NCBI RefSeq assembly: GCF_057098645.1
Contig: NZ_CM169472.1
DNA: 64,000 nucleotides
Reading direction: 5' to 3' (one strand)
The position numbers were made by a program. Positions within the stretch are counted from its first letter, which is position 1. The number at the start of each line of letters is the position of its first letter. Below, in pieces: positions 56,701-59,700 of the stretch.

Positions 56701-59700
56701 TGGATGCGGTGAATTTTGTGGCGGGCAATCCGGAAGCGGACCCGGAGCAGGAGCTGAGCGACCGCTGGGTGGTGGAGCAGATGTCAGAGCTGACGGCCAT
56801 GACAGCCTCGTTTGTGCTGGCAACACCGACGGAGACGGACGGGGCGCTGTTTCCTGGTCGCATCATGCTGGCGAACACCTGTATGTGGGATTACCGGGGA
56901 GATGAATGCGGGTATAACGGTCCTGCGGTGGCGGATGAGTTCGACAACCCCACCACGGATATCCGTAAGGACAGATGCAGCAAGTGCATGCGCGGGTGTG
57001 AGATGCGCGGCATGGTGGCTAATTTTGGCGGTTTCCTTTCCATTAATAAACTTTCGCAGTAAATCCCGGTTTATGACACAGACTGAATCAGCGATTCTGG
57101 CGCATGCCCGGCGGTGTGCGCCTGCGGAGTCGTGCGGCTTCGTGGTGAGAACGCCGGAGGGGGAGCGGTATATCCCTTGTGTGAATATCTCTGCAGAGCC
57201 GGAGGCGTATTTTCGTATTGCACCGGAAGACTGGCTGCGGGCAGAGATGCAGGGGGAGATTGTGGCACTGGTCCACAGTCATCCCGGTGGTCTGCCCTGG
57301 CTGAGCGAGGCCGACCGGCGGCTGCAGATAAAAAGTGCACTGTCCTGGTGGCTGGTCTGCCGGGGGGACATTCATAAATTCCGCTGTGTGCCACATCTGA
57401 CAGGACGGCTCTTTGAGCACGGGGTGACGGACTGTTACACGCTGTTCCGGGATGCATACCATCTGGCGGGAATTGATATGCCGGATTTTGAGCGTGAGGA
57501 TGACTGGTGGCGCAATGGTCAGAACCTGTACCTGGACAATATGGAGGCGACTGGTTTTTACAGGATTTCCCTGCCTTCCGCACAGCCTGGCGATATCCTG
57601 CTGTGCTGCTTTGGCGCATCGGTGGCCAATCATGCCGCCATATACTGCGGCAACGGTGAACTGCTTCACCATCTGCCTGAACAACTGAGTAAACGGGAGA
57701 GGTATTCCGAAAAATGGCAACGACGAACGCATTCAGCCTGGCGTCACCGCCACTGGCACGTATCTGCCTTCACGGGGATTTACAACGATTTGGCCGCCGC
57801 CTCAGCCTGTATGTGAACACGGCAGCGGAAGCCATCCGTGCCCTGTCGATGCAGATGCCGGGATTCCGCCGTCAGATGAACGAAGGCTGGTACCAGATAC
57901 GTATTGCCGGTGATGACACGGCACCGGAGGCGGTGTACGCCCGTCTTCACGAACAGCTGGGTGAGGGAACGGTCATCCACATTGTGCCGCGACTGGCCGG
58001 GGCCGGAAAGGGCGGACTGCAGATTGTGCTGGGGGCGGCAGCCATCGTGGGGTCGTTCTTCACGGCCGGGGCATCAATGGCGTTATGGGGTTCAGCCCTG
58101 GCAGCCGGTGGTTTTTCTGCCACCACGATGCTGTTTTCTCTGGGGGCCAGCATGATTCTGGGTGGTGTGGCTCAGATGCTGGCCCCGAAGGCTAAAGTAC
58201 CGGAGTACAAAAGCACGGATAACGGCAGACAGAACACGTACTTTTCCTCGCTGGATAACATGATTGCCCAGGGGAACCCGATGCCGGTGCCTTACGGTGA
58301 AATGCTGGTTGGCTCCCGGCGAATCTCCCAGGACATCAGTACCCGTGATGAAGGCGGTGACGGGAAGGTGGTGGTTATCGGGCGGCAGGCATAAAAGCGA
58401 AAAAATCCCGCAGTGCTCACGGACAGGAACTGCGGGAGAGTTACGAAGATTGAGTGTAAGGAATTATTCTTATGTCACGACAAAAACATTAACTCAGAGA
58501 GGGAGGATGTGCCGTTCTTTTCAGGGAGAAAGGATTTATCGTCCTGAGGAATAAAGGTAAGGAGCCCGCCCCTTACCTGACTGATTATTGAATGATGCCG
58601 CAGGCCATTCTCGCACCACCACCGCCCAGGGGCTCCGGATGGTCATGATGGTTATCACCGCCAGCATGAAGCATGAGAGAACGCCCTTTAATCTCTTTTA
58701 ATGAGTTCAGTCTCGGGGCCAGGACCGGGTAGTTCGCTTTTCCGTCATGCGTCACGAACAGCGCAGGGAGGTCGCCCAGGTGTCCATCCGGAGACCAGGG
58801 GCCAAGATGTTTGCCGGTGTTTTTCGGGTCAAAGTGACCGCCAGCCGATAATGCTGCGACCGGTTTTCCGTCTTTCAGTGCCGGGGCGCAATTTCCTTTT
58901 TCGTGCACATGAAAACCATGAATGCCTTCAGACAGAGAGTGAAGGGCTGGTGTGAACAGCAGACCGTAGGGGGTCTCCTGAATGGTTATTTTTCCAATGC
59001 TGACTTCTTTTCCGTCAGCACTGACAAGGTTCATTGGGACTTCCTGTTCTGCTGCGTATCCGCATGATGCTGCTGTCAGCATGGCAATGGCAGCAATGAT
59101 TTTACATTTCATAAAACCCTCATTAATTCCGTTAACAGACTGAGCTTGCTGGTTACAGGGTAACAAACAGCGTTCTGATGATATCGCGCAATAGCTGTGC
59201 AATATCCTATCACTGCGATTAATAATACCAATTGAGAGGAACATTATGGGTAAAGGTAGCGGCAGGGCGCACACGCCGGTTGAGGCAAAGGACAATCTTA
59301 AGTCCACGCAGATGATGAGCGTGATTGATGCCATTGGTGAAGGGCCGATTGAAGGTCCGGTGAAGGGGTTGCAGAGTATCCTGGTGAACAAAACCCCGCT
59401 GACGGACACGGACGGTAATCCTGTGATACATGGTGTGACAGCGGTCTGGCGCGCCGGGGAGCAGGAGCAGACACCACCTGAAGGCTTTGAGTCCTCCGGA
59501 GCTGAAACCGCACTGGGCGTGGAAGTGACGAAGGCAAAGCCGGTGACGCGCACCATTACGTCCGCGAACATTGACCGCCTGCGGGTCACCTTCGGGGTGC
59601 AGTCACTGTTGGAGACCACCTCAAAGGGCGACCGTAATCCCTCTTCTGTCCGACTGCTGATTCAGCTTGAGCGTGGTGGTAAATGGATGACGGAAAAGGA

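Follow-up and report, generated by a model that had tools for sequence, protein, structure and literature searches.

The DNA analysed here, a stretch of 64,000 nucleotides from contig NZ_CM169472.1 (NCBI RefSeq assembly GCF_057098645.1; hereafter the window), very probably carries a working copy of sodC-F1, the prophage-borne gene for a Cu/Zn superoxide dismutase (SOD) of enterohaemorrhagic-type E. coli. The gene occupies, as a moron, the spacer between the tail genes I and J of an Sp4-like, stx-negative lambdoid prophage beside yccA, and we expect it to operate as proposed below. It is read antisense to the tail genes. This placement had been given by an earlier reading of the stretch made from the sequence alone (the sequence-only reading), and is borne out by the Pfam match, the matches to solved structures and the flanking open reading frames (ORFs). 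The coding sequence is as follows:

58585-59112, minus strand: sodC-F1 coding sequence, 175 amino acids plus stop codon (ATG at 59112, TAA at 58587-58585)

A ribosome-binding site, GAGG (59121-59118), is found five bases before the ATG. The 175-aa protein exhibits a full-length match to the Pfam family PF00080 (Sod_Cu; E-value = 3.9 × 10-32, 111.9 bits against a cutoff of 28.9), covering profile positions 3 to 133 of 133. Solved structures of periplasmic SodC proteins from Haemophilus ducreyi, Yersinia, Salmonella (SodCI) and E. coli (SodC) match with E-values of 10-56 to 10-62. A mechanically compiled ORF list extends the frame to 344 aa, up to a GTG at 59619 and antisense over the start of J. 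We regard this extension as an artefact; the alignment with the SodC proteins of the Salmonella prophages Fels-1 and Gifsy-2 begins at the ATG. Records of O157:H7 strains (P0015) include a 236-aa "copper/zinc superoxide dismutase" extended in this manner at its N-terminus, probably owing to a mis-called start.

All residues expected of an active enzyme of this family are identified in the window protein. The copper ligands (H68, H70, H93 and H149) and the zinc ligands (H93, H102, H111 and D114) are present with the H-x-x-D spacing intact, and so are the disulfide pair C75-C171 and the catalytic R168, with the R-x-x-C motif intact. In the alignment with Fels-1 SodCIII and Gifsy-2 SodCI these ligands, cysteines and arginine are all invariant. 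The roles assigned to them are those established for the sequence motifs of Cu/Zn SODs, which in eukaryotic numbering are His46, His48, His63 and His120 for copper, His63, His71, His80 and Asp83 for zinc, Cys57-Cys146 for the disulfide, and Arg143. Loss of metal-binding histidines, which the sequence-only reading had named as the mark of a pseudogene, is not observed. Judged from these features, the locus encodes an intact Cu/Zn SOD.

The N-terminus of the protein shows a basic n-region (K2, K4) followed by a hydrophobic core, with a signal peptide at residues 1 to 20. Two cleavage sites can be read from it: GYA/A, for signal peptidase I, and AAS/C, for signal peptidase II, the latter within the lipobox A14-A-S-C17. 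The export signal thus appears to be dual, the lipobox AASC being predicted to leave part of the protein anchored in the membrane. A LipoP analysis and a fractionation have been published for the same SodC sequence (PMC2569942). The periplasmic protein with a signal peptide announced by the sequence-only reading is therefore correct as to export, and incomplete as to destination.

The exact protein sequence is found, under the name SodC, on at least 1000 contigs in the public collection. It is 100% identical to SodC of the Stx2a-converting phages EH2201 and EH1846. One of the copies of O157:H7 EDL933 matches it at 174 of 175 residues, the sole difference being residue 112 (leucine in the window, proline in EDL933). 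The two prophage genes of O157:H7 differ at exactly this residue, sodC-F1 having leucine and sodC-F2 proline (D'Orazio et al. 2008, PMC2569942). Given 174 of 175 identities to the proline-112 copy, and leucine at this position in the window, we infer that the window protein is SodC-F1. The intergenic DNA upstream of sodC is identical to that of EDL933. The gene order H-M-L-K-I-sodC(antisense)-J is likewise the same in EDL933, in prophage Sp4 of strain Sakai (sodC_1, ECs_1120), in O145:H28 strains and in the Stx2a phages. Compared with the SodC-F1/SodC-F2 loci of O157:H7 (CP-933R/V of EDL933; Sp4 of Sakai), the window thus shares the flanks, the I-sodC-J order, the orientation, the lipobox AASC and the upstream intergenic DNA. 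Nothing of substance differs, except that the host strain is not O157:H7.

We searched a set of 5426 complete E. coli genomes for the sodC module (58501-59245; its limits are derived below). The module is present in 546 of them, in up to five copies per genome; in 541 of these the identity is at least 99%, and 539 genomes show the complete I-sodC-J arrangement. The occupation of the I-J spacer by sodC is therefore already known and widespread: the module recurs in these 546 genomes, almost always in the same I-sodC-J context, and the sodCIII gene of Fels-1 lies at the same site. Since about one tenth of the complete E. coli genomes hold this module at this site, the presence of sodC in the window adds nothing new. 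The modest added value of the present analysis is anatomical: it defines the boundaries of the module and identifies the occupied spacer as the home of a validated Hfq-dependent small RNA (sRNA), PasB, which goes unannotated in all the genome records examined.

The function of SodC-F has been characterized in O157:H7 (PMC2569942). In uninduced lysogens sodC-F is expressed in exponential, stationary and anaerobic cultures, whereas the chromosomal sodC is expressed in aerobic stationary phase only. This expression does not depend on RpoS, as studied with a lacZ fusion to 299 bp of upstream DNA, and the tagged SodC-F protein is made in uninduced lysogens. SodC-F1 is dimeric and about three times as active as the monomeric SodC (19380 U/mg for the purified enzyme), and SodC-F resists proteinase K and EDTA. 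The protein is divided between soluble periplasmic and lipid-modified membrane forms, owing to a partial use of the AASC lipobox. Mutants deleted for sodC-F show a raised sensitivity to H2O2, and in bacteria within Caco-2 cells SodC-F is 6.6-fold more abundant than SodC (PMC2569942). The benefit in oxidative stress or intracellular survival that had been suggested from the sequence agrees with both observations. Through sequence identity the SOD activity of SodC-F1 would carry over to the window copy. So understood, sodC is a textbook case of lysogenic conversion, in which the prophage supplies a robust and partly membrane-anchored periplasmic SOD that is made when the chromosomal sodC is silent.

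The boundaries of the module emerge from its two flanking genes and from relatives without sodC. The flanking genes are:

57714-58394, plus strand: I, tail assembly protein, homologue of lambda gpI (Pfam PF06805, E-value = 1.5 × 10-16; annotation of collinear genomes)
59246-62722, plus strand: J, tail tip/host-specificity protein (seven J-specific Pfam domains, E-values of 10-22 to 10-41)

The gap extends from 58395, just after the stop codon of I (58392-58394), to 59245, just before the start of J, and measures 851 bp. The same flanks without sodC between them are found in phage JLK-2012, in Stx1a and Stx2c phages, in the Sakai prophages Sp11, Sp14 and Sp15, and in prophage PP6 of strain E2348/69. 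The I-J spacer is 239-240 bp in the closest sodC-less relatives (JLK-2012, PP6, Sp11, Sp14 and Sp15), and 60 bp in phage lambda; in this phage lineage I and J do not adjoin tightly even where sodC is absent, and the "normally adjacent" of the sequence-only reading is loose. An alignment of filled and sodC-less sites divides the gap into two parts. The 106 bp that follow I (58395-58500) are common to the sodC-less relatives (104 of 106 nucleotides identical to JLK-2012, two differences). From 58501 to the start of J the sequence is wholly different, about 745 bp standing in for about 133 bp of ancestral spacer. The "850-bp insert" described earlier is accurate for the length of the gap, of which only these ~745 bp (58501-59245) are specific to sodC. 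Since the ribosome-binding site of J (GAGAGG, 59234-59239, plus strand) falls within the module, the right-hand junction is the start codon of J itself.

The G+C content is 0.46-0.50 across the gap and 0.54-0.65 within the tail genes (300-bp windows). Absence from close relatives with the same flanks, a terminator hairpin of its own and a lower G+C content in the non-coding flanks uphold the description of sodC as a classic moron. In the sodC-less phages a strong hairpin, with TGTTTTTGTG after it, is located some 40 nt ahead of J on the plus strand, the strand of the tail genes (comparison sequences L002, 2369-2392, and L008, 2931-2954). It resembles a terminator within the late operon; in the window sodC replaces that stretch. 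The annotated start of I differs between records, a 681-nt form overlapping K in the Stx2a phage and a 582-nt form in RefSeq genomes; the shorter form of the RefSeq relatives starts at the equivalent of 57813 instead of 57714.

The putative transcription signals of sodC lie on either side of the coding sequence:

59113-59245, minus strand: 5' region of sodC (alignments with EDL933 and cM8a; GAGG; conserved 32-nt block)
58555-58578, minus strand: sodC-proximal terminator-like hairpin, AGGUAAGGGGCGGGCUCCUUACCU followed by UUAUUCC (10 pairs; scan hit)

For a phylogenetic footprint we used a diverged allele of the whole module from strain cM8a, with 79.7% DNA identity. A 32-nt block of the 5' region (59194-59163, CTATTGCGCGATATCATCAGAACGCTGTTTGT) is identical in cM8a though its surroundings differ, and includes a -10-like TATCAT (59183-59178) with no -35. 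This block is a candidate promoter or regulatory site. A PhoP-box-like repeat noticed by eye near TGTTTG (59169-59164) was rejected; its second half-site is poor, and it is not conserved in cM8a. The upstream regions of the Fels-1 and Gifsy-2 genes yield no meaningful alignment with that of the E. coli sodC, so that no shared regulatory element can be claimed. Downstream, the first hairpin begins 7 nt past the sodC stop codon and folds at -14.9 kcal/mol (z = -2.5 against shuffled sequences); an equivalent hairpin with a better U-run exists in cM8a. A second terminator on the sodC strand (58437-58399; stem 58437-58406, U6 at 58404-58399) abuts the stop codon of I. The terminator scan returned four terminator-like sites against 0.8 expected.

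These elements suggest how the locus would work. In a lysogen the late tail operon would be silent, and sodC would be transcribed leftward, antisense to it, from a promoter of its own. This promoter is expected no more than about 300 bp upstream of the ATG, a location shown for the identical O157 sequence and transferred here. The mRNA would end at the hairpin just past the stop codon and any read-through would be halted at the second intrinsic terminator abutting I; with two terminators on the minus strand, antisense transcription should not enter the tail genes. The exported protein would have its N-terminal signal cut by signal peptidase I or II, becoming partly soluble in the periplasm and partly lipid-anchored. 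Its stable dimer would remove superoxide coming from outside the cell, for example from a host oxidative burst, as published for SodC-F1 and expected here from sequence identity. In lytic growth the Q-modified late transcript would cross the region on the other strand, and J would be expressed from the ribosome-binding site inside the module.

Several points weigh against this scheme. All the functional statements are carried over from experiments in O157:H7 by sequence identity. PMC2569942 does not demonstrate that the E. coli gene contributes to virulence in animals. A sigma-70 consensus scan of 58300-59400 found no site, which leaves the promoter that the sequence-only reading had placed at 59113-59245 unconfirmed. 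The promoter may instead lie inside the 5' end of J: the experimental 299-bp promoter fragment extends 166 bp into J, so that the true start of sodC transcription could be located there. Finally, the U-run of the first hairpin is poor (UUAUUCC), and its efficiency as a terminator is uncertain.

The 106 bp between the stop codon of I and the sodC-specific part have a history of their own:

58395-58500, minus strand: PasB-family sRNA relic (body from about 58497; includes the second terminator described above)

PasB is an Hfq-dependent sRNA, validated by Northern blot, of prophage PP6 in the enteropathogenic E. coli (EPEC) strain E2348/69 (NC_011601.1, minus strand, 1466343-1466261, 83 nt; Pearl Mizrahi et al. 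2021, PMC8550237). The plus-strand genes I and J of E2348/69 have their end and their start at 1466255 and 1466496, respectively; by these coordinates PasB lies antisense in the I-J spacer, six bases past I. The Northern probe (AATCCCGCAGTGATCGCGGAGCT; PMC8550237 supplement) matches the terminator of the E2348/69 spacer sequence. The link to PasB is founded on these coordinates and on this probe. The window element occupies the same position on the same strand, antisense and directly after the stop codon of I, and it also ends in a terminator with a U-run. A local alignment gives 55 of 76 identical positions (72%): the 3' terminator half and the U-run are identical, and the similarity in the 5' body is weak. 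The allele of Sakai Sp15 is intermediate (82%), and JLK-2012 and E2348/69 have near-identical flanking promoter regions. The window segment folds into its terminal hairpin better than shuffled sequences (z = -3.2). A consensus fold of five PasB-like alleles supports the terminator stem alone and contains no compensatory changes; a conserved 5' structure accordingly finds no support from covariation. The window-type 106-bp element is present in 1254 of the 5426 genomes, unannotated in the 12 records listed.

What the window element shares with PasB is thus place, strand, terminator and about 72% of the body; what it lacks is a promoter. Just upstream of PasB in E2348/69 is a sigma-70-like promoter, TTCACA-16-TATAAT (11 of 12 consensus positions), which is also present in cM8a; in JLK-2012, where the arrangement is the same, the -10 reads AATAAT. 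In the window a 45-nt deletion takes out the -35, and the -10 reads ATCCTCCC instead of TTATAATT. With no promoter of its own, the element is filed as a relic or a possible element of a 3' untranslated region, and not as a working pasB. The cM8a module (comparison sequence L007, 2294-3197) keeps the full TTCACA-16-TATAAT promoter and a PasB-like body downstream of sodC; six genomes fall in the cM8a identity band. This allele looks like an intermediate or earlier stage, in which sodC had arrived beside J while the sRNA gene was still whole; the promoter would have been lost later, in the O157-type allele.

A second set of Hfq-bound RNAs maps to the same spacers. The sites EcOnc22, EcOnc23 and EcOnc24 of Sakai give RNAs of about 85 nt on Northern blots, destabilised without Hfq (Tree et al. 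2014, PMC4104026). Their peaks from Hfq cross-linking and analysis of cDNA (Hfq-CRAC) lie antisense in the I-J spacers, 22-84 nt from the start of J:

L009, 3215-3275, antisense to the tail genes: EcOnc22 peak, Sakai Sp15
L013, 1144-1205, antisense to the tail genes: EcOnc23 peak, Sakai Sp14
L012, 1195-1254, antisense to the tail genes: EcOnc24 peak, Sakai Sp11

All three are thus in the half of the spacer nearer to J, upstream of the predicted PasB-like promoter and not on the PasB-like body, and they do not agree with the PasB coordinates. In the window this J-proximal part has been replaced by sodC, in addition to the deletion or mutation of the promoter. When the window region and the sodC-less spacer were scanned with Rfam, all matches stayed below threshold and were judged to be chance ones (STnc400, with 20.6 bits where 80 are required, and models of snoRNAs), PasB remaining unmatched. 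The terminator sequence was not found in the Pas-sRNA preprint, its supplement or the supplements of Tree et al. 2014. The multicopy sRNA HnrS (EcOnc10-12) was considered as the RNA of the I-J spacer and ruled out, since EcOnc11 of Sp10 has the lysis genes on one side and the terminase on the other.

The presence of PasB there suggests that antisense cargo has landed in the I-J spacer repeatedly. An alternative to a locus with sodC as its sole product also arises. The locus might be bipartite, read-through of the weak first hairpin and subsequent processing freeing a 3' segment of about 100 nt (58497-58399) as an Hfq-binding sRNA co-regulated with sodC. The segment is homologous to the validated PasB in sequence and position. 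It has retained the terminator hairpin and its U6, with a fold superior to that of shuffled sequences, while the first hairpin is trailed by UUAUUCC only. In the O157-type allele the sRNA body and terminator sit 57 nt beyond the sodC hairpin, and only two of 106 positions differ from the promoter-bearing copies. This near-identity, however, may merely reflect recent ancestry. The element has lost its own promoter, and the Sakai Hfq-CRAC table, which lists orphan peaks only, shows no site at the sodC 3' region of Sp4. We therefore hold a bipartite locus to be unlikely. The I-J junction that the sodC-F module entered was apparently not empty but held a conserved antisense sRNA locus (PasB/EcOnc22-24), part of which the module overwrote. 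That the segment left behind is now produced as an sRNA derived from the 3' untranslated region seems to us similarly improbable; if true, it would have placed a prophage regulatory RNA under the control of the sodC promoter. With sodC as the product of the locus, the PasB relic most likely serves now as a back-up terminator that shields the tail genes from antisense transcription.

Phage-borne Cu/Zn SOD genes of Salmonella offer two points of comparison. Fels-1 SodCIII (STM0924) is an antisense Cu/Zn SOD in the same I-J spacer, with the same catalytic residues. It shows 60.5% protein identity to the window SodC and lacks the lipobox cysteine. The non-coding flanks of the Fels-1 gene cannot be aligned with those of the window; only 53 nt separate the stop codon of sodCIII from I, and there is no PasB-like element. 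These differences suggest that sodCIII was probably a separate acquisition at the same spacer, or at least underwent heavy remodelling. In Fels-1 (comparison sequence L005, junctions at 4850-4995 and 5520-5572) a lambda-like hairpin, AAACCGCC...GGCGGTTT, is kept next to J. Gifsy-2 SodCI (STM1044) is, like the window protein, a prophage-borne periplasmic Cu/Zn SOD of the dimeric type encoded antisense within the tail gene block. The Gifsy-2 gene sodCI is PhoPQ-regulated. The sequence-only reading had pointed to the sodC genes of Gifsy-2 and of O157 prophages for alignment. The O157 gene is indeed close, as the 174 of 175 identities to the EDL933 copy indicate, but SodCI is only 58.8% identical to the window SodC and its gene is flanked by a lom-like gene and L instead of I and J. 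Gifsy-2 is the functional paradigm, and Fels-1 the closest positional analogue. The role of SodCI as the paradigm of a virulence moron is summarised in PMC2569942.

The Salmonella genes bear on the question of who benefits. Were sodC chiefly in the service of the phage, dampening periplasmic oxidative stress and so stabilising lysogeny or protecting the cell during induction, its occurrence in the tail modules of unrelated phages would be accounted for. It is found in tail-region spacers of three lineages (the E. coli Sp4 type, Fels-1 and Gifsy-2), with different, non-homologous junctions. However, the antisense orientation and the expression in uninduced lysogens fit lysogenic conversion, and the reported mutant phenotype is the H2O2 sensitivity of the bacterium, with no phage phenotype in the cited work; a chiefly phage-serving role is thus very improbable. 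That sodC is an inactive remnant or a chance ORF is next to inconceivable: the only point in its favour is that the scan recognised no consensus promoter, and against it stand the intact frame with its complete set of catalytic residues, the recurrence of the exact protein on at least 1000 contigs, the near-identical DNA in the 541 genomes and the activity of a near-identical protein once purified (PMC2569942).

As a moron that brings lysogenic conversion, sodC resembles lom and bor, which are also accessory genes placed between conserved late genes; these are expressed from the prophage with transcription signals of their own, as is proposed for sodC. It differs from lom, which is co-oriented with the tail genes, in being antisense. 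The same tail module of the window contains a second classic moron, directly after J:

62789-63388, plus strand: Lom/Ail outer-membrane protein gene (Pfam PF06316, E-value = 1.4 × 10-117)

By sequence comparison, the prophage that carries both is an Sp4-like, stx-negative lambdoid prophage integrated beside yccA. Among collinear genomes strain C325 matches it best, and the match to O145:H28 strains is 99.2%. Collinearity with C325 (comparison sequence L014) sets its extent at about 14000-64000. Between Q and the SASA-esterase gene are found genes for a CPBP protease and a helix-turn-helix regulator, tRNA-Ile/Arg genes and an IS3 element. The prophage also holds a gene for a PerC-family regulator, hokD, relBE and dicB.

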